Shown here: piece after piece, positions 1-44,660 of the stretch | How the letters are laid out: every line of letters begins with the position of its first letter | How positions within the stretch are numbered: position 1 is the first letter of the stretch | DNA from: Candidatus Shapirobacteria bacterium | GTDB lineage: Bacteria > Patescibacteriota > Microgenomatia > UBA12405 | Length of the DNA: 64,000 nucleotides | Direction of reading: 5' to 3' | Assembly (NCBI GenBank): GCA_041665485.1 | Contig: JBAYIT010000003.1 | Span: forward strand, 3,146 to 67,145 | Made by a program: the position numbers and the translations under genes | Notes under the pieces: model-generated | Databases searched by the model: none | The model's input: only the letters and a program-made list of their open reading frames with translations | Told to the model about the DNA's origin: nothing

Positions 1-627
1 CTAACTAGTTATGCTTTTGATAAAGTCCGAGGAATTTGTGACTGCTCCAAAAACACCATTTTCTACAATGATTGATTCGATTGACCATTTGTGCAAGCTT
101 TCGTTTATTGCCCCACAACAATCCTCAAGCAATAGACATTTGTAACCTAAGTCGTTTGCTGACCTAAGTGTTGAGTGTACGCAACAATCTATCGTATTGC
201 CACAAAATGCTAGATATTTAATGCCTCGTTGTTTAAGATATTGATCTATTGAGGAGGAAACAAAAGCGCTTGTTGTTGATTTGTCAAAAACTCTTTCGGC
301 TGGTGTTGGTTTTAATTCTTCTGTAATTTCCCAGCAAAATGTATTTTTTGAAGAGGCGGTAGATGGTAATTGCTCCGTATTTACTTCTCCGTGTCGTGTA
401 AAGATTACCTCCAATCCATTTTCTCGCGCCATCTTTATTACTGAAGATATATTTTCAATTGGCTTTCTGAGTGGTTCAAGATTAAATCCGGCTTTATCCA
501 TATAACAGCCCCTTGTACAATAATCATTTTGCATATCAACTACTACCAAAGCCCATTCATTAATGCCAGTTGTCCCGCTTCTTGGCCAGTTGTGAGGTCT
601 AGCCTTTATTTTAATGTTTTTTATCAT
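1..627 (-). CDS. isochorismatase-family cysteine hydrolase (nicotinamidase-like)
   Basis: 208-aa ORF with the 'ALVVVDMQNDY' N-terminal signature typical of the isochorismatase/cysteine-hydrolase fold. ATG at 625-627 (rc) and TAG at 1-3 (rc). Confidence 0.6.
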   Translation of the reverse strand: MIKNIKIKARPHNWPRSGTTGINEWALVVVDMQNDYCTRGCYMDKAGFNLEPLRKPIENISSVIKMARENGLEVIFTRHGEVNTEQLPSTASSKNTFCWEITEELKPTPAERVFDKSTTSAFVSSSIDQYLKQRGIKYLAFCGNTIDCCVHSTLRSANDLGYKCLLLEDCCGAINESLHKWSIESIIVENGVFGAVTNSSDFIKSITS

Positions 628-686
628 CCGGTCTAATTACTTTACCCTTCACTAATACTATAATTTAACACAACATCAGGGTAATG

Positions 687-710
687 TTTTAGGCCTTCGG
701 GCATTCATCC
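687..710. repeat. 24-bp direct repeat copy 1 (ttttaggccttcgggcattcatcc) flanking RhuM gene 1
   Basis: 21/24 identical to 1781-1804. Contains a GCC-UUCG-GGC tetraloop hairpin. Confidence 0.6.
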
Positions 711-732
711 TAACACTAAATTTGATAAGATA

Positions 733-1776
733 ATGACAAGTTTTACTAGCGACATGCCCAAGGTTAATCACAAAATTAGTGTAAAAAATGAACTGACCGA
801 ATTTCTACTTTATACCGCTCCAAGCGGTAAAGTAAAAGTGGAAATTTATTTTCATGACGAAAACATTTGGCTGACACAAGACAAAATGGCTAAATTGTTT
901 GGCGTGCAACAGCCGGCCATTGCCAAACACTTAAAGAATATTTTCGAAAGTGGTGAATTGCAAGAAAATTCAGTTCATTCCATTTTGGAATATACTGCCA
1001 CTGATGGCAAAAAGTATCAAACAAAATTCTATAATCTTGATGCCATAATTTCCGTTGGGTATAGGGTTAATTCATCCCAAGCCACTCAATTCCGCATTTG
1101 GGCAACAGAAAGACTCAAAGAATACATCATCAAGGGCTTTACCATGGATGATGAAAGATTAAAAAATGGAAAATACTTTGATAAAGATTATTTTATAGAG
1201 CTACTAGAAAGAGTTCGTTCTATCCGTGCCAGCGAGAGGAAAATTTATCAGCAAATTACAGATATTTTTGCTGAATGCAGTATCAATTACAGTCCCACAT
1301 CAGAAATTGCCAAAAATTTTTATGCCATGATTCAAAATAAATTTCACTTTGCCATTACTGGCAAAACCGCTGCTGAAATTATTTATGAAACGGCAAACAA
1401 GCAAAAGCCTTTTATGGGACTCAAAACCTGGAAAAATTCACCAAAAGGCAGAATTTTAAAATCCGACACGGTTATTGCCAAAAATTATCTTAATGAGGAT
1501 AAAATAAAAAAACTGGAACGAGGCATTGTTGGTTATTTCGATTATATTGAAAGACTGATTGAAAATCGCACCACTCTCACCATGGAAAAACTGGCGGAAT
1601 CAGTGAATAACTTTTTGGAATTTAATAAGTACGATGTGCTTGAAGGAAAAGGCACAATTTCTCACGCCCAAGCGGAACAAAAAGCATTTCGGGAATACGA
1701 CGAATATAATAAAACGCAGGAAATAGAATCTGATTTTGACAAACTTATAAAATCTTTACCATCTGGGGATAAATAA
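733..1776 (+). CDS. RhuM-family protein (PF13310-like), paralog 1
   Basis: 347 aa with motifs 'YNLDAIISVGYRVNS', 'FRIWATERLKEYIIKGFTMDDERLK', 'SERKIYQQITDIFA' and 'KNYLNE'. These match the Salmonella RhuM family as I recall it. Confidence 0.8.
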   Translation: MTSFTSDMPKVNHKISVKNELTEFLLYTAPSGKVKVEIYFHDENIWLTQDKMAKLFGVQQPAIAKHLKNIFESGELQENSVHSILEYTATDGKKYQTKFYNLDAIISVGYRVNSSQATQFRIWATERLKEYIIKGFTMDDERLKNGKYFDKDYFIELLERVRSIRASERKIYQQITDIFAECSINYSPTSEIAKNFYAMIQNKFHFAITGKTAAEIIYETANKQKPFMGLKTWKNSPKGRILKSDTVIAKNYLNEDKIKKLERGIVGYFDYIERLIENRTTLTMEKLAESVNNFLEFNKYDVLEGKGTISHAQAEQKAFREYDEYNKTQEIESDFDKLIKSLPSGDK

Positions 1777-1780
1777 GATA

Positions 1781-1804
1781 TTTTGACCTTCGGGCATTCA
1801 CCCC
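1781..1804. repeat. 24-bp direct repeat copy 2 (ttttgaccttcgggcattcacccc)
   Basis: Lies 5 bp after the RhuM#1 stop codon. Matches 687-710. Confidence 0.6.
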
Positions 1805-1986
1805 TTACCCCTCTGCCCTCCGCCCAATAAGAAAAACAAATTTAACTCACCCCCTCAACTCAAAGAAAGAAGAAGGTTGAAAAATATTTTTTGAACTCTC
1901 GCCCCAATTCGTTTCTCCAAGTCCTTGTCCTCCTCTATGGGTGTCTCGACTGATGTAAAATAAAGCATGTCAGTCGGCGACTCAAG

Positions 1987-2019
1987 CCCCGCAACTGCTG
2001 GGGTCGCCCATACTGAAAC
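1987..2019. repeat. 33-bp repeat CCCCGCaACTGCTGgggTCGCCCATACTGAaAC (copy 1)
   Basis: About 85% identical to 2596-2630. Embedded in a larger inverted repeat (GGCGAC...GTCGCC, 1977-2011). Confidence 0.55.
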
Positions 2020-2030
2020 GTTGTCCAAAA

Positions 2031-2552
2031 TTGAAAAATTTGTCTAACCACAACAACATGGCCGAAAAAAACATAACTGATCTAACTGGAAAAACAAAAA
2101 AAATTACTTGTCTTGGTTGCGATCGCGAAAAAGGCTTAATTAACTTGGGCAATATTGTGAAGTCGGAATATTTTGATGCCCACCAAGACTATGAAATCCC
2201 CATCCCCGGTTTTGTGATTGTTTCCTCAAAAAGGCACATTCAAAGTATTGATGAATTTACCGAAGATGAACAACGGGATTTCATAAAATTTTTGTGTCGC
2301 TTACGTTCAGCCCAAAGACAAGTTCTCGGCATTGAAGTTATTTATATAGTCCAAGAGGAAGACACCTCACACCATTTTCATGTTTGGATGTTTCCGCGTT
2401 TTGATTGGATGGAAGAAAGGTTTGGTCGAAAAATTCAGTCTGTTCGTCCAATTATGGAATATGCCAGAGAAAACATGAAAACCGAAACCAAAATTAAAGA
2501 AGTTGAAACCGCGACACAGAAATTAAAGCAATTTTTTTCTAGTGCTGAATAA
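2031..2552 (+). CDS. HIT-family (histidine triad-like) hydrolase
   Basis: 173 aa with an N-terminal 'CLGCD' and a His-rich 'SHHFHVWMFP' motif resembling HIT proteins. Confidence 0.45.
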   Translation: MKNLSNHNNMAEKNITDLTGKTKKITCLGCDREKGLINLGNIVKSEYFDAHQDYEIPIPGFVIVSSKRHIQSIDEFTEDEQRDFIKFLCRLRSAQRQVLGIEVIYIVQEEDTSHHFHVWMFPRFDWMEERFGRKIQSVRPIMEYARENMKTETKIKEVETATQKLKQFFSSAE

Positions 2553-2595
2553 TGAAGAAAATTTTTCAACATCGTACAACACAGCATATGGGGTT

Positions 2596-2630
2596 CCCCC
2601 GCCACTGCTGACTTCGCCCATACTGATACA
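2596..2630. repeat. 33-bp repeat copy 2 (cccccgccactgctgacttcgcccatactgataca)
   Basis: Direct repeat of 1987-2019, so the two copies bracket the HIT gene. A partial third copy (catcagccatactgagacg) sits at 3153-3171. Confidence 0.55.
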
Positions 2631-2652
2631 TTAGCGGACATAATAAAAAATT

Positions 2653-3003
2653 ATGAAAAAGTTGATTGTATTTCTTTTAATCTTAACCACACTAGTTTTT
2701 ATTTGTTTTTTAAGTATTGACCGACAGTTAATCGTTATTCCTGGTTTTCATATACCAAAATTATTAGAAAAAAAATCAGATTCTCTTGTGCCGGTTGTTG
2801 GCTGGAATTTAGGTAATAATGTGTATCGATGTAGTACGGATGATGATTGTATTTTGGTATCCGTGGGAACATGTTGTGATTTTGTTGCTATCAATAAAAA
2901 CTTTAAGGATGAAATACAGTCAACTCCTATGATATGTACTCAAGTTTGCTATACAGAAGCTTTATGTAATAAGAGTGTTTGTCAGATAACCAAATCTAAA
3001 TAA
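2653..3003 (+). CDS. small membrane-anchored Cys-rich protein (hypothetical)
   Basis: 116 aa with an N-terminal hydrophobic helix (LIVFLLILTTLVFICFL) followed by an 8-Cys domain. No recognisable family. Confidence 0.4.
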   Translation: MKKLIVFLLILTTLVFICFLSIDRQLIVIPGFHIPKLLEKKSDSLVPVVGWNLGNNVYRCSTDDDCILVSVGTCCDFVAINKNFKDEIQSTPMICTQVCYTEALCNKSVCQITKSK

Positions 3004-3360
3004 TTTTTTATTACATCTCCATTCCTCACTTCGTTCCGGTACTCGACCCCGTTGCACTCTTCGGGGTGTATAACACGGTATGACTGGTTCGCTTGTGCTT
3101 CGCTCACTCCATATTGCCCATGCTTTTGATAAATTAAGTTTAAAGCATGGCAACATCAGCCATACTGAGACGTTACTGCACAATTCAAAAAATATAATTA
3201 GGTAAAAATAATAATGGACTCAGTTTCCAAAGACGGCTCCGGCGATTCACAAAGGGGTTGATTAAAATCAACTTTAGCCTACATCAACCACTAACCCACC
3301 CCCAAATTTTTCTATTTCCAGATTCGTATCTTCGTAAATTCGTAGATTCGTATTTATCCA

Positions 3361-3389
3361 TTGCAAACTCGGAAACCTACTGCTACAAT
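3361..3389 (+). promoter_or_regulatory. sigma70-like promoter upstream of tuf (-35 TTGCAA, 17 bp, -10 TACAAT)
   Basis: TTGCAA at 3361-3366 and TACAAT at 3384-3389. A second TACAAT lies at 3417-3422. Confidence 0.4.
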
Positions 3390-3458
3390 CTTAAAGCTTT
3401 TTAAGCTACAATACCTTTGTATTGTCCTTATTAATATTTAGTATTTAAAATCAAAAAA

Positions 3459-4631
3459 ATGGCAGACGCTTTCAAAAGAACCAAACCCCACGTTAATGTT
3501 GGCACAATCGGTCACGTCGATCACGGCAAAACCACCCTTTCCGCCGCAATTTCTAAAGTTCAGGGCAATCCTAAATCTTACGCTGATATCGCCAAAGGTG
3601 GCACCGTTCGCGATGCTTCCAAAATCGTTACCATCGCTATTTCTCATTTAGAGTATGAGACTGAAAAACGGCACTACGCTCACATCGACTGCCCGGGCCA
3701 CGCTGATTACGTCAAAAATATGATCACCGGTGCTGCCCAAATGGACGGTGGTATTTTGGTCGTCTCCGCCCCCGACGGTCCCATGCCTCAAACCCGGGAG
3801 CACGTCCTTTTGGCCCAACAGGTCAACGTTCCTTCCTTGGTTGTCTATTTAAATAAAACTGATTTAGTCACCGATCCCGAATTCTTAGATCTGGTCGAAA
3901 TGGAAATCCGCGATCTTCTCAAGAAATACGGTTATCCCGGCGATGAAACTCCTATTATTCGCGGAAGTGCCCTCAAGGCTCTCAATGGCGACCCAGAAGG
4001 TGTCGAATCTATCAAGAAATTGATGGAAGCTCTCGACAATTTCATTCCTGATCCTAAACGTGATCTGGAAAAGCCCTTCTTGATGCCCGTCGAAGACGTT
4101 TTCTCCATCAAGGGCCGTGGCACAGTCGCCACCGGTCGTATTGAAAGGGGAGTTGTTAAAGTCAACGAAGAAATCGAAATTGTCGGTCTTCGCCCCACCA
4201 AGAAATCCGTCGTTACCGGTGTGGAAATGTTCCACAAATCCCTCGATCAGGGTCAAGCCGGCGACAATGTCGGTATCCTTCTTCGTGGTGTTGAAAAAGA
4301 AGACATCGAAAGGGGCCAAGTTTTGGCTAAAATCGGCACCATTACTCCTCACACCAAATTCAAAGCCAGTATCTACCTTCTTAAGAAAGAAGAAGGTGGC
4401 CGTCATACTCCGGTTTTCTCCGGCTATCGTCCCCAGGTTTTCATTGGTACTACCGATGTTACCGGTGATGTCGCTCTGGCCGAAGGTGTGGAAATGGTCA
4501 TGCCCGGCGACAACGCCGCTGTCACTGTCACTCTTATTAAGCCAGTCGCTCTCGAAAAAGGTCAGCGTTTCGCTCTCCGCGAGGGTGGATTAACAGTTGG
4601 CGCTGGTGCCATTTCTGAAGTTATCGAATAG
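3459..4631 (+). CDS. tuf: elongation factor Tu
   Basis: 390 aa with '[19 protein letters not shown]', 'DCPGHADY' and 'NKTD' GTPase motifs. Full-length EF-Tu. Confidence 0.97.
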
Positions 4632-4646
4632 TAATAAAGCTTTAAA

Positions 4647-4680
4647 AGCCCCCCGAAAGCTTTCGGGGGGCGTTCTTTAA
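4647..4680 (+). terminator. intrinsic terminator/attenuator after tuf
   Basis: Perfect 22-nt palindrome ccccccgaaag/ctttcgggggg at 4649-4670, followed by cgttcttt. Confidence 0.6.
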
Positions 4681-4686
4681 AATAAT

Positions 4687-4998
4687 ATGACCAAAGGTAA
4701 TCGCATTCGTATTCGGCTAAAATCGTTTGACTCTCGGGTCATCGACGAAGCCGCCGCCAAAATCATCGAAGCCGCCGTTACTGCTGGTGCCCAAGTTCAA
4801 GGTCCCATTCCTTTACCCACCAAAAAGAAAAGAATCACTGTTCTTGCCAGCCCTCACACCGACAAAAATGCCCGCGAACACTTCCAGATCTTTACCCACA
4901 AAAGATTAATTGATATCACCAATACTAGTTTAAGAACCATCGACAGTCTCCAACATCTGGATTTGCCTTCCGGCGTTGAAATCGAGATTAAGATGTAA
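4687..4998 (+). CDS. rpsJ: 30S ribosomal protein S10
   Basis: 103-aa S10 homolog at the head of the S10 operon. Confidence 0.95.
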   Translation: MTKGNRIRIRLKSFDSRVIDEAAAKIIEAAVTAGAQVQGPIPLPTKKKRITVLASPHTDKNAREHFQIFTHKRLIDITNTSLRTIDSLQHLDLPSGVEIEIKM

Positions 4999-5005
4999 TT
5001 TTACT

Positions 5006-5644
5006 ATGATTTCAGGTTTCATCGCGAAAAAAGTTGGCATGGAAAGTCTCTTTACCGATGCCGGCCGTCGTCTCGTTGTTACTCGCCTCCAAGCTAATCC
5101 TCTCATCGTTACTCAAGTTAAATCAGAGGAAAAAGATGGTTATCAGGCTCTCCAGTTTGCTTTTGGTCAATCTCGCCGTTTAGATCGCCCTACTTCTGCC
5201 AAACTGGCCAAGATTAAAGTTGAATCCAAACCATCTGGATTCATTGAATTTAAACTAACCGATTCTGCCAAATCAGCCGAAGTTGGTTCCAATGTTGCCA
5301 TCACCGATGTTTTTAGTGAAGGCGATTCTGTCTCTGTTTCCGGAATTTCTAAAGGTCGTGGTTTTGCCGGTGTTATCAAACGCTGGGGCTTTCATCGCCA
5401 GCCGGTTTCCGGTGGTCAATCCGACCGTGTTCGGGCTCCCGGTTCTATTGGCGCCCAAACTCCGGGAAAAGTTCTTAAGGGTAAAAAAATGCCCGGTCAT
5501 TACGGCAATAAAAAAATCTCCACCCTTGGTCTAAAAGTTGTCAAGTTTTTTCCCGAAACCAATCAAGTTTTAGTCTCTGGCTCCGTCCCAGGGTGTCCTA
5601 ATTCCTGGGTTATTATCAGTAAACCTTACTTCCATGAAAGTTGA
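5006..5644 (+). CDS. rplC: 50S ribosomal protein L3
   Basis: L3 homolog. The ATG at 5006 (MISGFIAKKVGM...) is preferred over the longer ORF from 4976, which overlaps rpsJ. Confidence 0.9.
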   Translation: MISGFIAKKVGMESLFTDAGRRLVVTRLQANPLIVTQVKSEEKDGYQALQFAFGQSRRLDRPTSAKLAKIKVESKPSGFIEFKLTDSAKSAEVGSNVAITDVFSEGDSVSVSGISKGRGFAGVIKRWGFHRQPVSGGQSDRVRAPGSIGAQTPGKVLKGKKMPGHYGNKKISTLGLKVVKFFPETNQVLVSGSVPGCPNSWVIISKPYFHES

Positions 5645-6272
5645 TCTCTATAACCTCCAATCAGAAAAAATCGGCACTACCACTTTGCCTTTATCTTATT
5701 TTTCTGCCACCGTTTCTCCTCGGGTTTTATCCCAATACATGCGCGTTTACTTAAGTAATCAGCGCTCGTCTGGGGCTAAAGTCAAAGACCGAGGTGAAGT
5801 TGCCGGCACCACTAAAAAAATGTGGGCTCAAAAAGGCACCGGTCGCGCCCGTCATAGCACTGCCAAAGCTCCTCTTTTTGTTGGTGGTGGAAGTGCTCAT
5901 GGCCCCACCGGTAAACAAAACTATTCTCTAAAAATGAATAAAAAGGCTTCAAAAGCTGCTCTCAAGTCTGTTTTGACTACTTTTGCCAAGGAAGGCCGGA
6001 TTATTGTTATCGACAAATTCTCTCCCTTGCCCCCCAAAACCAAAGTTGCCTGGAATTTTATCGCTGGCTTAGAAAAAGCTATCGAAAAATTAGCCAAAAG
6101 TTCCAAGTTTGCCATCATTACTTCTCGTTCTTTGCCAAATCTCAATCGGGCTTTCGGCAACATCCCCGACATTAATCTCCTTTCTCTTCAATCTCTAAAT
6201 GCCTACCAGGTTTCTCGTCAAAAGTTTCTTATATTTTCTCAAAAAGCCGTTAATCGGATAAGTAAACCATGA
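5634..6272 (+). CDS. rplD: 50S ribosomal protein L4
   Basis: 212 aa with the 'KGTGRARHS' L4 motif. Confidence 0.93.
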   Translation: MKVDLYNLQSEKIGTTTLPLSYFSATVSPRVLSQYMRVYLSNQRSSGAKVKDRGEVAGTTKKMWAQKGTGRARHSTAKAPLFVGGGSAHGPTGKQNYSLKMNKKASKAALKSVLTTFAKEGRIIVIDKFSPLPPKTKVAWNFIAGLEKAIEKLAKSSKFAIITSRSLPNLNRAFGNIPDINLLSLQSLNAYQVSRQKFLIFSQKAVNRISKP

Positions 6273-6556
6273 TTAAAATGATTCCCATAATTACCGAAAA
6301 ATCAGTTGCCCTCCAATCTTCTGGTGTTTATGCTTTTTGGGTTGATTTAGGTGCCTCAAAATCCGAAATTAGAGTTGCTTTTAAAGATCAGTTTGCTGTT
6401 ACTCCAATTTCTATCAACACCACCATTGTTCGTGGCAAATTAAAGACTAATTGGAAGAATCGTAGTAAAATAGTCCGGTCCGACCGAAAGAAGGCAATTA
6501 TCACTGTCGGTGCCAAAAATAAAATAGATTCACTTCAATTCAAACCCAAAAAATAA
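6269..6556 (+). CDS. rplW: 50S ribosomal protein L23
   Basis: 95-aa L23 homolog in the conserved position. Confidence 0.9.
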   Translation: MIKMIPIITEKSVALQSSGVYAFWVDLGASKSEIRVAFKDQFAVTPISINTTIVRGKLKTNWKNRSKIVRSDRKKAIITVGAKNKIDSLQFKPKK

Positions 6557-6557
6557 T

Positions 6558-7307
6558 ATGAAATTACTTCGCCGACTGGCCACCATCAAGAAAAAAACCT
6601 CTGGCCGTGACTCCAGTGGCACTATTTCCGTCCGTCACCGCGGTGGTGAGCACAAGCGTTTTTTGCGTCTGATCGATTGGCGTCGTCCATATCTCGATAT
6701 TTCCGCCAAAGTTATTGCCATCGAATACGACCCCAATCGCACCGTCGATATTGCTCTCTTGTCTTACACTAATGGTTCCAAAAGTTATATCCTGGCTCCG
6801 GTTGGTCTAAAAATCGGTGACACTGTTGTCAATAGTCCTTCTGCTCCCATTAAAGACGGCAATCGTCTACCTCTCAAAAATATTCCTGTTGGTTTACCTA
6901 TTCACGGCCTAGAACTTCAGGTTGGCAAAGGGGCTCAAATTGTTAAATCAGCCGGTTCTTCCGCTTTTATTCAAAGTGTCGATGGTAAGAAAGCCATCAT
7001 TAAATTGCCATCCGGTGAAATTAGGATTTTTAATTCCGAATCTCAAGCTACCATCGGCCAGTTAGGTCAGGCCGAACACTCAACCACTAAATTAGTTAAA
7101 GCCGGCGACTCCCGCCACCGAGGTATTCGCCCCGGTGTCCGCGGTGTTGCTCAAAATCCTCACTCCCACCCCCACGGTGGTGGTGAAGGTCGCAGTTCCA
7201 TTGGTATGAATCCCAAGACTCCTTGGGGTAAGCCGGCCATGGGTAAACGAACTCGCAAACGCAAAAACCGCAGTAACAAGTTAATTGTTCAACGTCGAAA
7301 GAAATAG
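6558..7307 (+). CDS. rplB: 50S ribosomal protein L2
   Basis: 249-aa L2 with a C-terminal 'HPHGGGEGR' region. Confidence 0.95.
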   Translation: MKLLRRLATIKKKTSGRDSSGTISVRHRGGEHKRFLRLIDWRRPYLDISAKVIAIEYDPNRTVDIALLSYTNGSKSYILAPVGLKIGDTVVNSPSAPIKDGNRLPLKNIPVGLPIHGLELQVGKGAQIVKSAGSSAFIQSVDGKKAIIKLPSGEIRIFNSESQATIGQLGQAEHSTTKLVKAGDSRHRGIRPGVRGVAQNPHSHPHGGGEGRSSIGMNPKTPWGKPAMGKRTRKRKNRSNKLIVQRRKK

Positions 7308-7360
7308 TTTTAAGTTTTTAACTTGATAAACTTTTAACTTTATAACTTTATAACTTATCT
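7308..7360. repeat. AACTTTATA-type degenerate tandem repeats filling the rplB-rpsS spacer
   Basis: ttttaagtttttaacttgataaacttttaactttataactttataactt. The same family occurs at 8001-8050, 8686-8730 and 48784-48864. Confidence 0.6.
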
Positions 7361-7633
7361 ATGTCAAGAAGCTCGAAAAAAGGTCCTTTTGTTGACCCCC
7401 GCCTGATTGAAAAAATAACCAAGGATCCAACGGGTGTTATCACTACTTATTCTCGCCATTCTCAAATCGCTCCGGAGTTTGTCGGTCATACTTTTGCCAT
7501 TCACACCGGCCGTAAATTTGTCAACGTTTATATTACCGAAGACATGGTCGGCCATTATTTGGGTGAATTTGCCCCCACCCGAACCTTCAAAGGCCACGGG
7601 CGTATCGTTAAGAGAGTTCTAGAAAAAACCTAA
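7361..7633 (+). CDS. rpsS: 30S ribosomal protein S19
   Basis: 90-aa S19 homolog. Confidence 0.93.
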
Positions 7634-7634
7634 C

Positions 7635-8000
7635 ATGACTACTGTAAAATTTTCTCATCCCAACGTTCCTATTTCTCCCCGAAAAATCAGGGCTCTGGTT
7701 GCCACTGTCAAAAAGATGGCCCCAGTCAAAGCTCTTATTTCTCTTAAATTCACTAACTCAAAATCAGCCAGAATTTTGGAGAAGTTTGTTAGAAATGCCG
7801 TTGCCGCCGCTAAAAGTAACAATCAATTAACTCCTGAAAGTCTCAAATTTGATTCTTTTCAGGTTGATGAAGGTTTAAAAATTAAACGGATGGACAAATC
7901 CCACGGCTCCCGTTTTGCCCGTGGTGTTATCCAAAAAAGGCACAGTCGCCTTTCTCTGACTTTATCGGGCGTTTCTGATAAAATAGCCAGTCAGCAATAA
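7635..8000 (+). CDS. rplV: 50S ribosomal protein L22
   Basis: 121-aa L22 homolog. Confidence 0.9.
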   Translation: MTTVKFSHPNVPISPRKIRALVATVKKMAPVKALISLKFTNSKSARILEKFVRNAVAAAKSNNQLTPESLKFDSFQVDEGLKIKRMDKSHGSRFARGVIQKRHSRLSLTLSGVSDKIASQQ

Positions 8001-8050
8001 AATTATTTTAACTTGATAAACTTTATAACTTTTAACTTTATAACTAATTA
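8001..8050. repeat. AACTTTATA-type repeats in the rplV-rpsC spacer
   Basis: aattattttaacttgataaactttataacttttaactttataact. Confidence 0.6.
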
Positions 8051-8692
8051 ATGGGACAAAAAGTTAATCCAATCGGTTTCCGTCTGGAAACCACCAAAAA
8101 CAATCACGAATGGCAGTCTTCTTGGTATGCCTCAAAAGCTAAATATGGTCTCTATCTTTTAGAAGATAAAAAAATTAGAGACTACCTCCAAAAAAAATTT
8201 TCTGGTGCCGGTATAGTCGCTGTCCGCATCAACCGTTCTGCTAAAAAAGTCAAATTAACCCTCATTGTCAGTCGCCCCGGTTTAGTCATCGGTCGTGGTG
8301 GTAAAGAGTTGGAAACAATCAAAACCGAAGTTCAAAAAAGCCAGTCCAAGTTGTTGGGTAAGCCGGCTATTGAAATTCAGGTCGAAGAGTTCAAACATCC
8401 CGATTTATCAGCCAAATTAGTTGCCGAGAAAATCGCTTTTCAGTTGGCCAAAAGAATGCCTCATCGCCGAGTAGTTTTATCTGCCATGGAAAAATGCATG
8501 GCCGAAGGTGCCAAGGGTATTAAAATCGTTTTAGGCGGTCGTATCAATGGCGCCGAAATTAGTCGTCGGGAAAAGTTTTATCAAGGTAAAGTTCCACTTA
8601 GCACTATTCGCTCATTTATCGATTATGCCGACTGCCCCTCTCTTACCCGCTCCGGCTACATCGGCGTTAAAGTTTACCTGTGTTTAACTTAA
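8051..8692 (+). CDS. rpsC: 30S ribosomal protein S3
   Basis: 213-aa S3 with KH-like and S3_C regions. Confidence 0.93.
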   Translation: MGQKVNPIGFRLETTKNNHEWQSSWYASKAKYGLYLLEDKKIRDYLQKKFSGAGIVAVRINRSAKKVKLTLIVSRPGLVIGRGGKELETIKTEVQKSQSKLLGKPAIEIQVEEFKHPDLSAKLVAEKIAFQLAKRMPHRRVVLSAMEKCMAEGAKGIKIVLGGRINGAEISRREKFYQGKVPLSTIRSFIDYADCPSLTRSGYIGVKVYLCLT

Positions 8693-12313: not shown

Positions 12314-12760
12314 ATGGAATACACGCCAAAAGTTGAATCAGAGTTTTCCGACAAAGTTGTCGAAATTAAAAAGGTTACCAAAAAAACCAAAGGTGGCAAC
12401 CAGATGTCTTTCACTGCTCTGGTAGTTTCCGGCGATCGCAAAACTAGAGTCGGCGTTGGTTTAGGTAAAGCCAAAAGTGTTGCCGATGCCATCCAAAAAG
12501 GTATTCAAAAAGCCCGTAAATGTTTAATTACCGTTCCAATTGTTAACGGCACCATCCCCTCCGAAGTCACTCTCAAATTTAAAGGAGCCATAATTCTTAT
12601 TCGTCCCGGTAAAAAGGGAAGTGGTTTAATCGCCGGCGGTCCTGTCCGGGCAGTTGTCGAGAATTCCGGTATCAAAGATATTGCCAGCAAAATCATCGGC
12701 TCCAAAAACAAATCAGTTAATGTTTGGGCAACTTTCAAAGCCCTCCAAATGTTGTCATGA
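12314..12760 (+). CDS. rpsE: 30S ribosomal protein S5
   Basis: 148-aa S5 homolog. Confidence 0.93.
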   Translation: MEYTPKVESEFSDKVVEIKKVTKKTKGGNQMSFTALVVSGDRKTRVGVGLGKAKSVADAIQKGIQKARKCLITVPIVNGTIPSEVTLKFKGAIILIRPGKKGSGLIAGGPVRAVVENSGIKDIASKIIGSKNKSVNVWATFKALQMLS

Positions 12761-13179
12761 ACATCCTTTCTGCTCTAACTCCCATTAAAGATAAGTCCGC
12801 CAAACGTCGTGGTCGGGGTATTGGTAGCTGTAAAGGTGGCCACACCACCGGTCGTGGTGCTAAAGGTGACAAAGTTAGAGGTAAAACCAAAATCACTTTT
12901 GACGGCACCAAAATTAAAAAATCATGGATTAAAAGACTTCCGTTTTTGCGGGGTAAACATCGTCTTCTTGCCCAGTCAAAATTCTCTGTTTTTAATCTCT
13001 CCCGCATCGACGCTCTCTTTGCTAAAGCCGGTGCCATTGTCACCCCCAAGGATTTGGGGCAAAAATCTGCCAAGATTCTTGGCTTTGGCAATCTAACTAA
13101 AGCTCTCACTTTTAAAGGTTTTTCTGTTTCCCAATCTGCTAAGACCAAAATTATCGCTGCGGGTGGTAAGATTGACTAA
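12757..13179 (+). CDS. rplO: 50S ribosomal protein L15
   Basis: L15 homolog. The ATG at 12757 overlaps the rpsE stop (ATGA). The longer ORF from 12724 is probably not used. Confidence 0.88.
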
Positions 13180-14467: not shown

Positions 14468-14779
14468 GTGACAAAAACGTCTCCAGTCCTATATATAATC
14501 GCAACTTTAATTATTTTTCTACTTGTTTACCTTCTTGTATCTTATCAATTTGTCAACTTAGGTAAAACTGATCCAGAGTGTGTTAGGCCAAGCTGTAGCG
14601 AACAGGGTTGTGTTCTTAAATCTGAATACGAAAAAAACCCTTGGGACACAACCTGTGAATATCGGCCTATTTATGGTTGTCAAAGTAGATATACCAATTG
14701 CCTTTATGACGGGAAAAGTAAATGCAACATAAAAGAGTCTATTGCTTATAAAATTTGTAAATTAACAAACAAAGAATGA
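14468..14779 (+). CDS. small membrane-anchored Cys-rich protein (hypothetical) between secY and adk
   Basis: 103 aa with a GTG start, an N-terminal TM helix and 10 Cys in the remainder. Confidence 0.4.
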   Translation: MTKTSPVLYIIATLIIFLLVYLLVSYQFVNLGKTDPECVRPSCSEQGCVLKSEYEKNPWDTTCEYRPIYGCQSRYTNCLYDGKSKCNIKESIAYKICKLTNKE

Positions 14780-15354
14780 AATTAAACCTTTTTATCATCG
14801 GACCAAGCGGTTGTGGTAAATCCACTCAAGCCAAGCTTATTGCCGATAAATACGGCCTTACTCATCTCTCTATGGGTCAGCTTTTGCGTGACGAAATTGC
14901 TCAAAAATCTAAACTAGGTTTACAAGCCCAAAGTTTTATTGAACAAGGTGTGTGGGTTCCCGATGATTTAATTTTTGACGTATTAACACCCAACTTAGAA
15001 AAATTAAACAACGACAATTTTATTGTCGATGGCTTCCCTCGGGTCCTAAATCAAGGCAAAATTGTCGAGTATTATCTTAAAACCAACCAAAAATCTTTTT
15101 CTCTTCTTATTCATCTTGATGTTACTTTCGAAGAAATTCTTGCCCGTCGAGCCAAAATGGGCGCCGAGTTTCAGGATCAAGGCCGAACCGATAACACTCC
15201 CGAAGCTGTTAAACAACGCCAGCAGTCTTATCTAGAAACCGTCAATCCCATTAAAGATTATTTCCGATCTCTGGGAAAATTATTTGACGTCAATGGCAAC
15301 CGCCCCATCGAACCAATTTTTGAAGACATTTGCAAAGCCATTGACTCTATATAG
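14776..15354 (+). CDS. adk: adenylate kinase
   Basis: 192 aa with the 'IIGPSGCGKSTQA' P-loop and a 'VDGFPR' motif. Short lid without zinc ligands. Confidence 0.9.
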   Translation: MKLNLFIIGPSGCGKSTQAKLIADKYGLTHLSMGQLLRDEIAQKSKLGLQAQSFIEQGVWVPDDLIFDVLTPNLEKLNNDNFIVDGFPRVLNQGKIVEYYLKTNQKSFSLLIHLDVTFEEILARRAKMGAEFQDQGRTDNTPEAVKQRQQSYLETVNPIKDYFRSLGKLFDVNGNRPIEPIFEDICKAIDSI

Positions 15355-15374
15355 AAACCATATATAATCCATAT

Positions 15375-15659
15375 ATGTATCCACAACCAACCAAAGTCCA
15401 CCAAAAATTAATTAGTTTTCCTGACCCTATCTATACCCGTCTTTTAGAACGGTCAAAAAAATCTGGTTTCTCCTTTTCCGAGTACATTCGGATGATGTCG
15501 TTTCTCCATCTTAGAGAACCCGAGCCATTTGAAGAGGTCGAAGTTTTAGATGCCAAAACCTCAAAAGAAGTTGAAGCCTCTCTTAAAGAATTTCGGGAGG
15601 GTAGATATCACACCTTCAAAACCATGTCCGAGTTCAAAAAGTATTTCGACAAACTTTAG
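15375..15659 (+). CDS. type II antitoxin, ribbon-helix-helix (CopG/RelB-like)
   Basis: 94 aa. The N-terminal 'ISFPDPIYTRLLERSKKSGFSFSEYIRMM' is a classic RHH. Confidence 0.6.
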   Translation: MYPQPTKVHQKLISFPDPIYTRLLERSKKSGFSFSEYIRMMSFLHLREPEPFEEVEVLDAKTSKEVEASLKEFREGRYHTFKTMSEFKKYFDKL

Positions 15660-15661
15660 TT

Positions 15662-15949
15662 ATGTATCAGGCAATTACTACTCCACTTTTTGAGAAAAAA
15701 TTTTCCAAACTTACTAAAAATAATCCCTTGCTTAGAAAACAAATTTACCAGACCGTCGAGACTTTAAAATTAGATCCATACTATGCTGGTTTAAAAACTC
15801 ATAAGGTTAATTTTGGTTCGGGTATCACCGCTAGAAGCTCTCGGGTAACTGGTGATATTCGTTTAATTTGGAATTTTACTAAAGAAAAATTAGTTATTCT
15901 TCTTCTCAACCTCGGTCCCCACTCCGGCTCCAAAAAAGTTTACAAATGA
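15662..15949 (+). CDS. type II toxin, RelE/ParE superfamily
   Basis: 95 aa. 'SRVTGDIRLIWNFTKEKLVILLLNLGPHS' fits the RelE/YafQ C-terminal pattern. Starts 3 nt after the antitoxin stop. Confidence 0.6.
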   Translation: MYQAITTPLFEKKFSKLTKNNPLLRKQIYQTVETLKLDPYYAGLKTHKVNFGSGITARSSRVTGDIRLIWNFTKEKLVILLLNLGPHSGSKKVYK

Positions 15950-16902
15950 AAATTAGCCTCTATCTCACCACCTCCCTAAATGGCCTAACCACCAGATTTG
16001 GCGATGACACCAACTGGGCCGACGATTGGGATATTTTAAATAACCACATTAAAGAGAACGGGCTGATTGTTATGGGCAAAAGGACTTATCGATTTGCCAA
16101 AGGAGTATTCCCCTATAAAAACGCCCTAAATGTGGTCTTAACACACGATCAAAAATTACTATCTCAAAAAAATGACGATAAGTCATTATTTTTGAATAAA
16201 TCACCAAGAGATCTGGTTAAGTATCTATCAAATTTAAAATACAAAAACCTCCTTCTAATTGGCGGTCAAAAAACCATTACTCAATTTTTTCAAGAAAATT
16301 TAATTGATGAAATTTTCGTAACCGTCTCTCCTTGTATTTTTGGCAACGGTAAAAATATAATCAAAAAAAGCCTTGTCGACTGTAAACTTAAAATACTAAA
16401 CACAAAAACAAAAAACGGCCTGGTGGAATTACATTACCAAGTTGTTAAGCCAGTTTTAACAATTCGTCAATTCAAAGCCACCGAAATACCGTTAATTAAG
16501 AAATTTTTGGTTAAGATATTCTCTGAGTTTGGTTGGAAAATTGAACCACAATATGATTCTGATTTAGATGACATGGTCAAGTTCTATAACCCCGCCGACA
16601 ATAGTATTTTCTATGTTGTTGTTGATGGTAATAAAATCATTGGAACTGCCGGAATAAAAAATAAAGGTAATGGAATTGCCGAGATTAAAAAAATGTTTTT
16701 AGCATCTGATTATCGAGGCCGTGGCTTGGGAAATAGATTATTAACTAAAATTATTAATTTTTGCCAAGACAAAAAATATCAAAAAATAGTCTTAATCACC
16801 GATCCCAAACTCAAAGTTGCCCATAAGTTATACGAAAAACATGGTTTTTCTGTGACAAAAATAATCAAAGATGATATACATATGGCAAAGTTGTTAAGTT
16901 AA
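15946..16902 (+). CDS. fusion protein: DHFR-like (RibD C-terminal-type reductase) domain + GNAT N-acetyltransferase domain
   Basis: 318 aa. The N-terminal half ('ISLYLTTSLNG...LLLIGGQKTITQF') resembles the RibD_C/DHFR fold. The C-terminal half ('IGTAGIKNKGNGIAEIKKMFLASDYRGRGLGNRLL') is a GNAT. Confidence 0.55.
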   Translation: MKISLYLTTSLNGLTTRFGDDTNWADDWDILNNHIKENGLIVMGKRTYRFAKGVFPYKNALNVVLTHDQKLLSQKNDDKSLFLNKSPRDLVKYLSNLKYKNLLLIGGQKTITQFFQENLIDEIFVTVSPCIFGNGKNIIKKSLVDCKLKILNTKTKNGLVELHYQVVKPVLTIRQFKATEIPLIKKFLVKIFSEFGWKIEPQYDSDLDDMVKFYNPADNSIFYVVVDGNKIIGTAGIKNKGNGIAEIKKMFLASDYRGRGLGNRLLTKIINFCQDKKYQKIVLITDPKLKVAHKLYEKHGFSVTKIIKDDIHMAKLLS

Positions 16903-16905
16903 TTT

Positions 16906-17646
16906 ATGAAGATAACCGATTCATATCAAAAAATATTTAAAAATAAAAAGAGAATACTCGTGGTCTTAGCTCATCCCGATGACAACGAGATTATTTGTGG
17001 CGGTTTGGTTGCAAGATTGATATCAGATAAGAAAAAAGTTCGCCTTCTGTCGATGACTAATGGTGGCAAAGGTGTTCGAGAGAGGAACGATATTTCGGAA
17101 AAAGAATTTGCCGAAATCCGCAAAAACGAACAAATCAATGCCGGCAAACAACTCGGTGTCTCATCTAACGAAATTTTTAATTTAGACATTCCCGATGGAG
17201 AATTGGAAACTAACCTTGATGCCATTAAAAAAGTGGTTTATCATCTGCGCCAATTTCAGCCCGATATAATTATTACCCACAACCCCGAAGAGATTATTAA
17301 TTGGTACTCAAAATCGGTTGGTTGGGTCAATCACCGCGATCACCGGCATACCGCCGAGATTTTATTAGATGCCACTTATCCTTATTGTCGAGACAGAGCC
17401 TTCTTTCCTGAACAATTTAAAATAAAGAATCTAAAACCTTGCTATGTTTCAGAGTATTTATTTTCTGATTCATACACTCACCCAGACGCAATCTGTTTTG
17501 ATGTTACCAGCTTTGTCGATAAAAAAAGAGTCGCCCTAAAAGAACATACTAATGGTCTAAATCAAGATGAAATTGACGGTTTTTTGGATGAAATCAAAAA
17601 AGGTACAAAAAGTTACGAGGTATTAAGATACGTAAATTTATCCTAA
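16906..17646 (+). CDS. PIG-L/LmbE-family N-acetylglucosaminyl deacetylase
   Basis: 246 aa with the 'VLAHPDDNEIICGG' signature of the LmbE/PIG-L family. Confidence 0.7.
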   Translation: MKITDSYQKIFKNKKRILVVLAHPDDNEIICGGLVARLISDKKKVRLLSMTNGGKGVRERNDISEKEFAEIRKNEQINAGKQLGVSSNEIFNLDIPDGELETNLDAIKKVVYHLRQFQPDIIITHNPEEIINWYSKSVGWVNHRDHRHTAEILLDATYPYCRDRAFFPEQFKIKNLKPCYVSEYLFSDSYTHPDAICFDVTSFVDKKRVALKEHTNGLNQDEIDGFLDEIKKGTKSYEVLRYVNLS

Positions 17647-17685: not shown

Positions 17686-17889
17686 ATGAAAGAACCAACT
17701 GTTCGGGGTACTGTTACTGAAGTCCTGTCAAACCAGCTTTTTCGGGTTGAGCTGGAAGACAAGAAGTTAATTGTTTGCCATTTGGCCGGAAAGTTGCGCC
17801 TTCATCACATCCGCTGCCTGGCTGGCGACGCCGTCACCCTCGTCCTTTCCCCCGACGGTGACAAAGGTCGAATTGTCTACCGGGGATAA
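17686..17889 (+). CDS. infA: translation initiation factor IF-1
   Basis: 67 aa. 'GKLRLHHIRCLAGDAVTLVLSPDGDKGRIVYR' matches the IF-1 S1-like fold. Confidence 0.85.
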   Translation: MKEPTVRGTVTEVLSNQLFRVELEDKKLIVCHLAGKLRLHHIRCLAGDAVTLVLSPDGDKGRIVYRG

Positions 17890-17959
17890 TTTAAAATTTG
17901 ATATTAAAAATTGATTAAAAATTAAAAATTTCAAATTAAAAATTAGGCAAATTTGCCCT

Positions 17960-17988
17960 TTGCTATTAGCCATATTTTAGGTTACAAT
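17960..17988 (+). promoter_or_regulatory. promoter upstream of rpmJ-rpsM (-35 TTGCTA, 17 bp, -10 TACAAT)
   Basis: TTGCTA at 17960-17965 and TACAAT at 17983-17988. Preceded by AT-rich ATTAAAA repeats (17890-17946) and the palindrome GGCAAATTTGCC. Confidence 0.4.
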
Positions 17989-18004
17989 AGCCAAGTCATT
18001 TCCT

Positions 18005-18118
18005 ATGAAAGTCCAATCTAGTGTCAAACCTCGGTGTAAAAATTGTAAAGTTGTCATTCGTCGGGGTATTCGCCGGATTGTTTGTTCTATTAAAAAACAT
18101 ACCCAAAAACAGGGATAA
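18005..18118 (+). CDS. rpmJ: 50S ribosomal protein L36
   Basis: 37 aa 'MKVQSSVKPRCKNCKVVIRRGIRRIVCSIKKHTQKQG', below the ORF-track cutoff. Canonical C-x2-C...C-x-H L36. Confidence 0.9.
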   Translation: MKVQSSVKPRCKNCKVVIRRGIRRIVCSIKKHTQKQG

Positions 18119-18120
18119 TT

Positions 18121-18540
18121 ATGAGAATATCAGGTGTTGAAATTCCCGACAACGAAAGAGCTCAAGTTGGTTTAACTCGCTTTTTTGGCATCGGCCCTAA
18201 AAAAGTTCTTAGCTTGGCTAAAAAAGCCAATATTGATCTTAATACTAGAATTAAAGACCTCTCCCGCGATGATGTTGGTAATCTGATGAAGGCCCTCGAG
18301 TCTTTTTCCGTCGAAGGAGACCTTAAAAAAGACATTAGAGAGAACATTGATCGTCTAAAAGCTATTAAATGTTACCGTGGCATCCGTCATATCGTCGGTT
18401 TGCCCGTTCGTGGCCAGAGAACTAAGTCCAATTCCCGCACCCGTAAGGGTAAGAAGAAAACTGTTGGCTCTCTTACTAAGGAAGCATGGGCAAAGATTGA
18501 AACACAACAAAATGCCGCCGCTGCCGCCAAAAATAAATAA
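18121..18540 (+). CDS. rpsM: 30S ribosomal protein S13
   Basis: 139-aa S13 homolog. Confidence 0.92.
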   Translation: MRISGVEIPDNERAQVGLTRFFGIGPKKVLSLAKKANIDLNTRIKDLSRDDVGNLMKALESFSVEGDLKKDIRENIDRLKAIKCYRGIRHIVGLPVRGQRTKSNSRTRKGKKKTVGSLTKEAWAKIETQQNAAAAAKNK

Positions 18541-43347: not shown

Positions 43348-44409
43348 TTGGAAATTGGTTATTGGGATTTGTTTGGAAATTATTTTTTGTTTATTGGTTA
43401 TTTAATGATGAAACCACAGAGGATTGAGATTTCCTACAAAACTATCGTTTTTATTACCGCCTTTTTTCTTTCTCTTTTTTTACTTTGGAACGTCAGAAAT
43501 ATTATTTTCCTCATCTTCGTTTGCTTCATGTTTATGGAAGCAATAAATCCGGCAGTTTCCCGATTAGAAAAATTCCATCTGCCTCGGGCTGTCGCCATTT
43601 TATTAATCTACTTGGCTATTTTATCTTTTCTCTCTTTTTCTTTTGCTCTCATTATTCCCATTCTTGTCGAACAAACTTCTAGTCTAGTTGATGTTTTGCC
43701 AAGAACTTTAAGTAATATTTCCTTTTTTGGTTTTAACACCAGTAATATTGATTGGAATTCTCAGTTAAAAATTCTCGAAAACCTACCCACCGAAATTGCC
43801 AAAGCTGCTGTATCTTTTTTCTCTAACATTTTTTCCGGTTTCATTATTCTTGTTATAACTTTCTACATGTTGCTCGAACGCCAACATTTAAGTCAATATG
43901 GCTTCCATTTTTTTGGAAAAAAAGGCAAAGCCGTCGTTGTTGAGGTTCTTGAAAAACTCGAATTTAGGTTAAGTAGTTGGTTAAATGCCCAGTTGCTTTT
44001 AATGACCATTATCGGCTTGTTTGCCTATATTGGTTATAGTCTTATTGGTCTTAGTTATGCCGTTCCTCTCGCTATTATGGCCGGAATTCTTGAGGCTGTC
44101 CCCAATATTGGCCCTACCATTTCCACTCTCATGGCCGCCATTATCGGTCTAACTATTTCTCCTATGACTTCCGCTCTAGCAGTTGGTGTTGGTTTGATTA
44201 TTCAGCAACTCGAAAACAATGTCATCGTTCCCCGTTTGATGAAACAAGCAGTTGGCATCAATCCTCTTATTACTATTCTCTTGATTGCTACTGGCGTTAA
44301 ACTGGCTGGGATCGGAGGGGCTGTGCTTGCTCTTCCTGTCTATCTAACTATCGAAGTTGTCGTCAATATCCTAACCAATAATCACAAAAAAGACCAAAGA
44401 AGTCGATAA
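43348..44409 (+). CDS. AI-2E-family transporter (PerM/UPF0118)
   Basis: 353 aa, polytopic, with conserved 'LAIMAGILEAVPNIGPTIS' and 'NNVIVPRLM' regions. Confidence 0.7.
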   Translation: MEIGYWDLFGNYFLFIGYLMMKPQRIEISYKTIVFITAFFLSLFLLWNVRNIIFLIFVCFMFMEAINPAVSRLEKFHLPRAVAILLIYLAILSFLSFSFALIIPILVEQTSSLVDVLPRTLSNISFFGFNTSNIDWNSQLKILENLPTEIAKAAVSFFSNIFSGFIILVITFYMLLERQHLSQYGFHFFGKKGKAVVVEVLEKLEFRLSSWLNAQLLLMTIIGLFAYIGYSLIGLSYAVPLAIMAGILEAVPNIGPTISTLMAAIIGLTISPMTSALAVGVGLIIQQLENNVIVPRLMKQAVGINPLITILLIATGVKLAGIGGAVLALPVYLTIEVVVNILTNNHKKDQRSR

Positions 44410-44660
44410 GCCGGATTTTGTTTATGGGTCATCTGTCTTGTGCTTCCCACCTGGAGCTACCAAAAGCTGGTAAGCGCCCCGTTTTGGAATTGCTGCCGGA
44501 AGGATGCTCGTTGCACTTCCCCTAGTCAGACTAGGATGTTCGTCACTGTGGCCTTGCCCTGGATTACTCCAGCCCCGCCTTTGGCGGGATTCCGTGCTTT
44601 TTGCAGTCCGGACTTTCCTCCCCGATTTGCATCGGAGTAGACCCTTCAACTTCTTTGGTC
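44392..44660 (-). ncRNA. rnpB: RNase P RNA (bacterial, size-reduced)
   Basis: rc contains the P4 strands 'GGAGGAAAGTCCGGACTGC' and 'ACAAAATCCGGCTTATCG', and 'CAGTGACGAACATCC...GTGCAACGAGCA' (AGUGCAAC-like). P1 pairs GACCAAAGAAGTTG (5') with CGACTTCTTTGGTC (3'). About 269 nt. The 3' end overlaps the last codons of the AI-2E gene on the other strand. Confidence 0.8.

Follow-up and report, generated by a model that had tools for sequence, protein, structure and literature searches.

The DNA analysed here, referred to as the window, is a 64,000-nucleotide stretch of a Candidatus Shapirobacteria genome (assembly GCA_041665485.1, contig JBAYIT010000003.1, positions 3,146 to 67,145), with a GC content of 41% and a contiguous S10-spc-alpha ribosomal cluster. 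Inside this cluster, four packed, co-oriented open reading frames (ORFs) on the + strand lie between adk (14776-15354, +; Pfam ADK 1.5e-36) and infA (17686-17889, +; NCBIfam infA 5e-20, over the cut-off), where a first-pass annotation made from the letters had placed them. They are g1 (15375-15659, 94 amino acids (aa)), g2 (15662-15949, 95 aa), g3 (15946-16902, 318 aa) and g4 (16906-17646, 246 aa), and they are predicted to encode an antitoxin, a RelE-superfamily toxin, a fusion of a dihydrofolate reductase (DHFR)-like domain with a GNAT acetyltransferase domain, and a PIG-L deacetylase, respectively. The spacing is 20 nt between adk and g1 and 39 nt between g4 and infA. The g1/g2 junction reads TAG-TT-ATG, a gap of 2 nt rather than the 3 nt first counted, the g3 start codon shares 4 nt (ATGA) with the g2 stop, and g4 starts after a 3-nt gap (TAA-TTT-ATG). 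We consider it likely that these genes form a lineage-specific composite insert in a variable slot of the cluster, with two evolutionarily independent parts, a toxin-antitoxin (TA) module (g1-g2) and two enzymes (g3 and g4). The insert is a composite of known kinds, with the toxin, fusion and deacetylase families all already known.

The identical layout was found in Logan SRR6484324, in JGI 3300037810 and in an NCBI metagenome-assembled genome contig of 182,759 bp, and this recurrence in independent assemblies means that the cassette is no assembly artefact. No terminator-like site was detected on the + strand between adk and infA, and the four genes run in the same direction as the operon, so the insert is probably read through from it. 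A Shine-Dalgarno motif (GGAG, GAGG or AGGA at -18 to -4) precedes only 4 of the 83 predicted genes of the window; translation in this genome seems to start largely without Shine-Dalgarno pairing. Composition was indecisive as to a foreign origin, the GC contents of g3 (0.328, z = -1.8) and g2 (0.344, z = -1.45) being low without being outliers. An integron-type cassette array was also considered and rejected: attC sites are imperfect inverted repeats of about 57-141 nt, and the spacers (2 nt, a 4-nt overlap and 3 nt, with flanks of 20 and 39 nt) are too short to hold them.

Occupancy of the adk-infA slot and divergence of the four genes

What lies between adk and infA was compared in 10 related genomes, whose Adk and SecY are 53-70% and 69-78% identical to those of the window. 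In seven of them adk directly abuts infA (L004, L005, L006, L007, L009, L010 and L014). Two others, L002 and L003, hold a PNPOx-like gene of 130 aa in the gap, and L008, a related Microgenomates genome, holds a stand-alone RibD_C/DHFR-like gene, 40% identical to the N-terminal half of g3, together with a second gene (L008:7073-7564, 163 aa) that has no Pfam match. As for the four-gene cassette itself, a single further genome was found to carry it, L016, whose SecY is 91% identical to that of the window and which is the nearest of the relatives recovered. The synteny comparison that the first-pass annotation had proposed thus came out divided: one sister genome shares the cassette, and the ten relatives at a greater distance lack it. 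This layout is stable but restricted to a small sub-clade, and the adk-infA junction is a variably occupied slot of the ribosomal cluster in this lineage.

The first-pass annotation had described the cassette as sitting in the place of map. It was right that map is missing from the window: tblastn with an E. coli Map query returned a best E-value no better than 2, and no Peptidase_M24 domain was found among ten mid-sized ORFs scanned against Pfam. In none of the 10 relatives did this query find a Map homolog within about 6 kb of adk, and most of them have adk next to infA with nothing between. In this lineage, therefore, the adk-infA junction has no map gene for the cassette to have displaced.

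The neighbouring junction, between secY and adk, is also occupied. In the window it holds an ORF of 103 aa (14468-14779, +) that overlaps the adk start by 4 nt and encodes a Cys-rich product with an N-terminal hydrophobic segment; its only match is a weak one to an "eight-cysteine-cluster" family (0.0024), and it is present in the assemblies of the same genome. The corresponding position has a DUF559 endonuclease-like gene in L016 and a NUDIX gene in L002, and since the contents differ among genomes this position is a second variable slot.

L016 carries all four genes in this order too, and the comparison of the window with it is one in which synonymous sites are saturated (proportion of synonymous differences, pS, 0.55-0.82). 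The g1 copies are 53% identical at the amino acid level (proportion of nonsynonymous differences, pN, 0.31 vs. pS 0.66), as are the g2 copies (53%, pN 0.33). The g3 copies are 83% identical (pN 0.086, dN/dS 0.09) and the g4 copies 82% (pN 0.090); for adk the values are 63% and pN 0.26. That pN is well below pS in all four genes indicates that they are real and kept by purifying selection. Two of them, g3 and g4, are slow-evolving, and g1-g2 evolve faster, at a pace typical of TA genes.

The g1-g2 pair and its upstream element

The RelE superfamily has a compact alpha/beta fold like that of microbial RNases, with two N-terminal helices packed on an antiparallel sheet. An AlphaFold2 model of g2 has a pLDDT of 86, and its top 25 Foldseek matches in the PDB are all RelE-superfamily toxins (E = 1.6e-5 to 5e-4, TM-scores 0.63-0.83). 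A profile of the 12-member g2 family searched against the PDB likewise gave credible matches solely to toxins of this superfamily, among them YoeB (3e-4) and HP0892 (9e-4); the chains of YoeB, HP0892/HP0894 and YafQ that it matches span E = 3e-4 to 0.2. NCBI labels g2 as a RelE/StbE family toxin, and two family members have precomputed PF15738 matches. Across 12 homologs, four residues never vary (H47, D65, R67, Y94) and three more (K48, R61, H87) are conserved in at least 90%. By alignment with YafQ, H47, R61 and D65 of g2 correspond to H50, H63 and D67 of YafQ; for the C-terminal His and Tyr the correspondence to H87 and F91 of YafQ was judged by eye. The family thus appears to have His/Arg/Asp/His/Tyr where YafQ has H50/H63/D67/H87/F91, and it has an invariant C-terminal motif of its own, G-x-HSGSKKVYK. 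The modelled fold and the profile matches confirm the assignment of g2 as a predicted RelE-superfamily toxin of the YafQ/YoeB/HP0894 type, and by analogy with these proteins it is presumably a ribosome-dependent mRNA endonuclease. An anti-phage defence role was considered and set aside: no PADLOC defence model matched any of the four proteins, and a scan found no relatives of the g2 family on viral contigs.

Assigning g1 is harder, and NCBI labels it a hypothetical protein. No above-threshold Pfam or NCBIfam match was obtained, and none to DUF1778 at E <= 0.1. Its sub-threshold matches are to a VapB antitoxin (0.0017) and a NikA-like family (0.007), and its profile gave weak PDB matches to NikA (0.024), to DinJ over the full length (0.1) and to RelB (0.69). 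A single-sequence AlphaFold2 model has four helices and a pLDDT of 50. We think that g1 is probably a DinJ/RelB-like protein, with a ribbon-helix-helix (RHH) DNA-binding N-terminus and a helical toxin-binding tail. Of the RHH antitoxin and RelE toxin initially proposed, the RelE fold of g2 and the position of g1 as its upstream partner stood up, and the RHH fold of g1 is weakly supported.

The position of g1 next to g2 is repeated elsewhere. In L016, L019/L020 and L022, a gene of 90-95 aa that resembles g1 stands immediately before the g2 homolog; the more distant g2 homologs, P0007 and P0014, both have such a gene in front. The surroundings of the latter two are unrelated, with type IV secretion pilins in one and a glyoxalase and a metallophosphatase in the other, and no DHFR, GNAT or PIG-L gene was found around either of them. 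In a sample of 80 metagenomic loci of g4 orthologs, none had a g1/g2-type gene, adk or infA nearby. As the g1-g2 pair recurs alone in unrelated contexts, we regard it as an autonomous type II TA module.

Directly upstream of g1 is a promoter/operator-like element with ATATAT repeats (15335-15382, +), composed of TTGACT (15341-15346), a 16-nt spacer and TATAAT (15363-15368), the last of which ends 6 nt before the g1 ATG. The element overlaps the last five codons of adk, in which the -35 hexamer lies, and the first codons of g1. It agrees with the consensus at 11 of 12 positions and is the best sigma70-like site between 13 and 19 kb, by a consensus that is of the E. coli type and unvalidated for the Candidate Phyla Radiation (CPR). 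A palindrome, CTATATAG, lies within it, as does a pair of CCATATAT direct repeats spaced 11 nt, or one helical turn, apart. L016 matches the window at all 48 nt, and no other exact match in the 3.8 kb compared, of 70% identity overall, reaches this length. Relatives without the cassette have no such element, and the 3' ends of their adk genes differ from that of the window. The g1 homologs of L019 and L022 are preceded by other repeat pairs, as expected for TA operators. These features suggest that the element may act as promoter and operator of the TA module. A 9-nt inverted repeat (15289-15297 / 15337-15345) was also noted within the 3' end of adk. A leaderless g1 mRNA was considered, given the -10 hexamer 6 nt from the ATG and no Shine-Dalgarno motif, and was not retained, the latter feature being uninformative where only 4 of 83 genes have one.

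The arrangement resembles that of DinJ-YafQ of E. coli, of HP0893-HP0892 and HP0895-HP0894 of H. pylori and of YefM-YoeB, in which small antitoxin and toxin genes nearly abut in that order. The likeness extends to the RelE/YafQ/YoeB fold of the predicted toxin, to the weak full-length alignment of g1 with DinJ and to the promoter-like site with repeats directly upstream. Unlike the known toxins, g2 is only 12-25% identical to any solved one and falls under the Pfam and NCBIfam cut-offs. Unlike DinJ-YafQ and its kin, g1-g2 lies inside the spc/alpha ribosomal cluster, and the toxin stop overlaps the start of an enzyme gene. By analogy with these systems, g2 would cleave mRNA on the ribosome, and g1 would neutralise g2 and repress the sigma70-like promoter/operator abutting its own ATG; loss of the labile g1 would free the toxin. 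The four genes probably share a transcript with adk and infA and are probably also expressed from the putative TA promoter, and the ATGA overlap probably couples translation of g3 to that of g2. Searches of the literature for TA systems in CPR bacteria, PIG-L proteins in Patescibacteria, TA genes in the spc operon and operons of Shapirobacteria turned up nothing of direct relevance.

The g3 fusion and the g4 deacetylase

That g3 is a fusion of a DHFR-like and a GNAT domain, as initially annotated, is borne out by matches above the Pfam cut-offs to both. The N-terminal domain (about 15946-16450, +) matches RibD_C over residues 8-153 (2e-10; 41 bits vs. a cut-off of 24.1), and the C-terminal domain (about 16453-16902, +) matches Acetyltransf_1 over residues 205-301 (2e-18). 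DHFR_1 is matched at 20.5 bits, below its cut-off of 25. The best solved relative of the N-terminal half is the DHFR of Thermotoga maritima (1cz3, 8e-18, residues 33-166). This half of g3 keeps the VMGxxT and IGG nucleotide-binding motifs; its first 32 residues, including the catalytic-acid region, could not be confidently aligned with 1cz3. Both 1cz3 and the YyaP/YwjB-type "dihydrofolate reductase family" proteins are related to this half, despite the DHFR_1 score. A five-sequence profile of the GNAT half searched against the PDB gave 3d8p as the best match (5e-24), among uncharacterised GNATs, and the top 60 (E <= about 1e-4) of 187 matches at E <= 1 contained no GNAT toxin (TacT, AtaT, KacT or ItaT). 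Judging by these domains, g3 would be an NADPH reductase-like and acetyltransferase enzyme, apparently catalytically intact.

In an exhaustive HMMER search of g3 against 1.84 billion representative proteins, its DHFR-like and GNAT halves turned up mostly as independent proteins, about 170 and about 150 aa long, respectively. Besides g3, the top 150 matches included just two with both domains, P0044 and P0081. The former is a Limosilactobacillus reuteri protein cluster annotated as a GNAT family N-acetyltransferase. Its member WP_255316898.1 resembles g3 in domain order and length (324 vs. 318 aa), with both domains matched in one stretch (query 19-309), but the identity is only 25-30%, and the two fusions may have arisen independently. 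The DHFR-like/GNAT architecture is thus already known and uncharacterised. A metagenome scan with the five-sequence GNAT alignment gave 142 pattern matches and no relative.

The reading of g4 as a PIG-L deacetylase was also upheld, with a match to Pfam PIG-L (PF02585) at 1.9e-29 (103 bits vs. a cut-off of 28.2). Across the 11 orthologs compared, neither the AHPDD nor the NHRDHRH motif varies (H23, P24, D25, D26, H143, D145 and H146). The solved relatives nearest to g4 are an archaeal diacetylchitobiose deacetylase (7e-13) and LnmX, then BshB. Dac, LnmX, BshB1 and MshB have in common with g4 the PIG-L domain and the zinc/catalytic motifs AHPDD and HxDH, but g4 is not an equivalog of any characterised PIG-L/LmbE member; it defines an orthologous group that spans Patescibacteria. 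Below E = 1e-10 it has 256 homologs, and it is 50-63% identical to orthologs in Daviesbacteria, Dojkabacteria, WWE3, Saccharibacteria and Parcubacteria. In four other phyla the orthologs lie in four different neighbourhoods. No GNAT or DHFR-like neighbour was found at the orthologs in the four inspected genomes of these phyla, nor at most of the 80 metagenomic loci. By its domain match and motifs g4 is a member of the PIG-L/LmbE family of zinc-dependent de-N-acetylases; its orthologous group is found in nearly all Patescibacteria and is normally solitary. Together with g3, it would supply the second part of the insert, two apparently catalytically intact enzymes. Given the wide conservation of g4 and the autonomy of the TA pair, the first-pass view of the four genes as a single accessory unit was not sustained.

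Independent parts or a single system

Several observations weigh against two independent parts, or against the assignments on which that reading rests. Shuffled sequence yields as many promoter-like sites overall as the region itself. All RHH matches of g1 are sub-threshold and its AlphaFold2 model is of low confidence, so that the fold is not demonstrated. The scores of g2 are under the curated cut-offs (15 vs. 30 bits for YafQ_toxin, 15.8 vs. 28 for ParE-like and 19.5 vs. 87 for TIGR00053). At the junction of the g2 stop and the g3 start, the window and L016 are 100% identical over 40 nt, with 10 consecutive identical codons where the gene-wide expectation is about 54% (p about 0.002 before correction for multiple testing), which suggests selected coupling of expression. 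Finally, g3-type GNATs recur beside g4-type PIG-L genes, so g3 and g4 may be a functional pair. In L027:3234-4465, a g4 ortholog (50% identical) is directly followed by P0015, the closest stand-alone relative of the g3 GNAT (46%), and a second case with the same layout (L094:3007-4206; GNAT 41% identical, E = 1e-30) came from the unbiased sample of 80 g4 loci. On these two unrelated contigs PIG-L is followed by GNAT within about 20-35 nt, the order opposite to that of the window. The adjacency leads are suggestive, but the cases are few.

These observations lead to a reading in which all four genes are one system, with the TA pair regulating or stabilising a small metabolic module. The GNAT would acetylate an amine, the DHFR-like domain would use NADPH to reduce this amine or a related intermediate, and PIG-L would take the acetyl group off again; an amino sugar or a folate/one-carbon-related compound would be the substrate. 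Besides the overlap of the g3 start with the g2 stop, the identity of their junction in diverged genomes and the two PIG-L/GNAT neighbourhoods, the single-system reading can draw on the recurrence of DHFR-like/GNAT fusions in distant lineages and on DHFR-like genes near g4 orthologs in L032/L033 and L068/L069. It can also draw on the next GNAT relative, P0027 (39%; L109:4001-4447, neighbours 1-8447), which lies inside a purine/one-carbon operon with the order purF, serine hydroxymethyltransferase (SHMT), a purN-purD fusion, GNAT, purM, two PurP-like genes and purB; its place beside SHMT and glycinamide ribonucleotide transformylase fits the fusion of a GNAT to a DHFR-like domain. We nevertheless think a single system unlikely. 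Most of the 80 g4 loci and all four genomes of other phyla have no GNAT or DHFR-like neighbour, the g1/g2-type pair occurs at none of the 80 loci, and g2 homologs elsewhere come without these enzymes. Weak GNAT matches near g4 are about as frequent as chance would give for so common a family, and the codon conservation at the junction is only modestly significant. A more far-reaching version, to which we give rather little weight, is that this GNAT subfamily, the DHFR-like domain and the Patescibacteria-wide PIG-L constitute an uncharacterised small-molecule pathway of these bacteria with reduced genomes, protect-modify-deprotect in its logic, which this lineage has wired to a TA promoter in a translation operon. 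If this were true, TA autoregulation would tune the pathway enzymes, acting on a folate/one-carbon-linked or amino-sugar substrate, and downstream infA as well.

The first-pass annotation had raised two more specific ideas, both of which we now regard as very improbable. One was that the GNAT is a TacT/AtaT-type toxin that acetylates aminoacyl-tRNA, with the RHH protein as antitoxin and PIG-L as antagonist. GNAT toxins are single-domain proteins of about 160-180 aa, encoded directly downstream of an RHH-DUF1778 antitoxin. An RHH-like gene and a GNAT domain do occur here in one tight gene string, adjoined by a deacetylase, but the likeness to the TacT/AtaT/KacT/ItaT systems is superficial. The g3 GNAT is the C-terminal half of a 318-aa protein, fused to a reductase, and its upstream neighbour is g2 rather than the RHH-like g1. 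The gene directly after g1 is that of a RelE-fold toxin, with which it recurs as a pair alone. Neither the top 60 PDB relatives of the GNAT half nor the profile matches of g1 point to such systems, the former lacking TacT, AtaT, KacT and ItaT and the latter lacking DUF1778/TacA. Conservation of g3 (83%, dN/dS 0.09) is enzyme-like and far slower to erode than that of the TA pair, and g3-type GNATs stand alone in metabolic contexts.

The other idea was that g3 and g4 serve the biosynthesis of a bacillithiol- or mycothiol-type thiol; g4 would then be a BshB/MshB-like and the GNAT an MshD-like enzyme. In NCBIfam, g4 does match BshB1 best (6e-22), and MshD is weakly matched by the GNAT half (4.6e-6). 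Against the equivalog cut-offs, however, the scores fall far short: 78.4 vs. 182.5 bits for BshB1, 37.8 vs. 195 for BshB2, 34.7 vs. 277 for Mca, 24.1 vs. 224 for MshB and 26.2 vs. 163 for MshD. In addition, g4 is nearer to archaeal diacetylchitobiose deacetylases and LnmX than to BshB, and its orthologs have unrelated neighbours. Among the Pfam-annotated neighbours of the orthologs in the four other phyla there is no BshA/MshA- or BshC/MshC-type domain, the 80 metagenomic loci and the rest of the genome being unprobed in this respect. MshD has two GNAT domains and g3 has one. A composite of an autonomous TA module and two enzymes evolutionarily independent of it remains the explanation we favour.

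Neighbouring features and significance

Downstream of the insert, infA is followed by rpmJ (18005-18118, +; read directly in the sequence) and rpsM (18121-18540, +). Between infA and rpmJ, at 17945-17995, there is a short GC hairpin (AGGCAAATTTGCCT) and then a promoter-like TTGCTA-17-TACAAT (17960-17988); a 22-nt block (17974-17995) is identical in L016. Going by these signals, transcription could terminate and restart between infA and rpmJ-rpsM. Upstream in the cluster, rpsE (S5) is directly followed by rplO (L15) (12314-13179), with no rpmD (L30) between them, an absence that is usual for many CPR bacteria. Elsewhere in the window, a class A RNase P RNA (44391-44657, -; 117 bits) covers the full model (1-367) in only 267 nt and is thus markedly shortened. 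Towards either end of the window lies an ORF of about 350 aa (733-1776, + and 59296-60348, -); the two have very similar N-termini (...FLLYT.P.GKVKVE....DENIWL.Q...) and appear to be paralogs.

The main consequence of this analysis is to remove a false lead: map was not displaced, and the TA pair is of the ordinary RelE type rather than a GNAT toxin system. The comparison with relatives marks the adk-infA and secY-adk junctions as tolerated landing sites for small genes in Shapirobacteria-type genomes. A TA module with a conserved promoter-like element has persisted in the most conserved operon of the genome despite saturating synonymous divergence, which indicates that in CPR bacteria selfish or regulatory insertions are tolerated even here. 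The occurrence of a Patescibacteria-wide PIG-L protein beside one folate/purine-linked GNAT subfamily offers a starting point for finding the function of conserved CPR enzymes.

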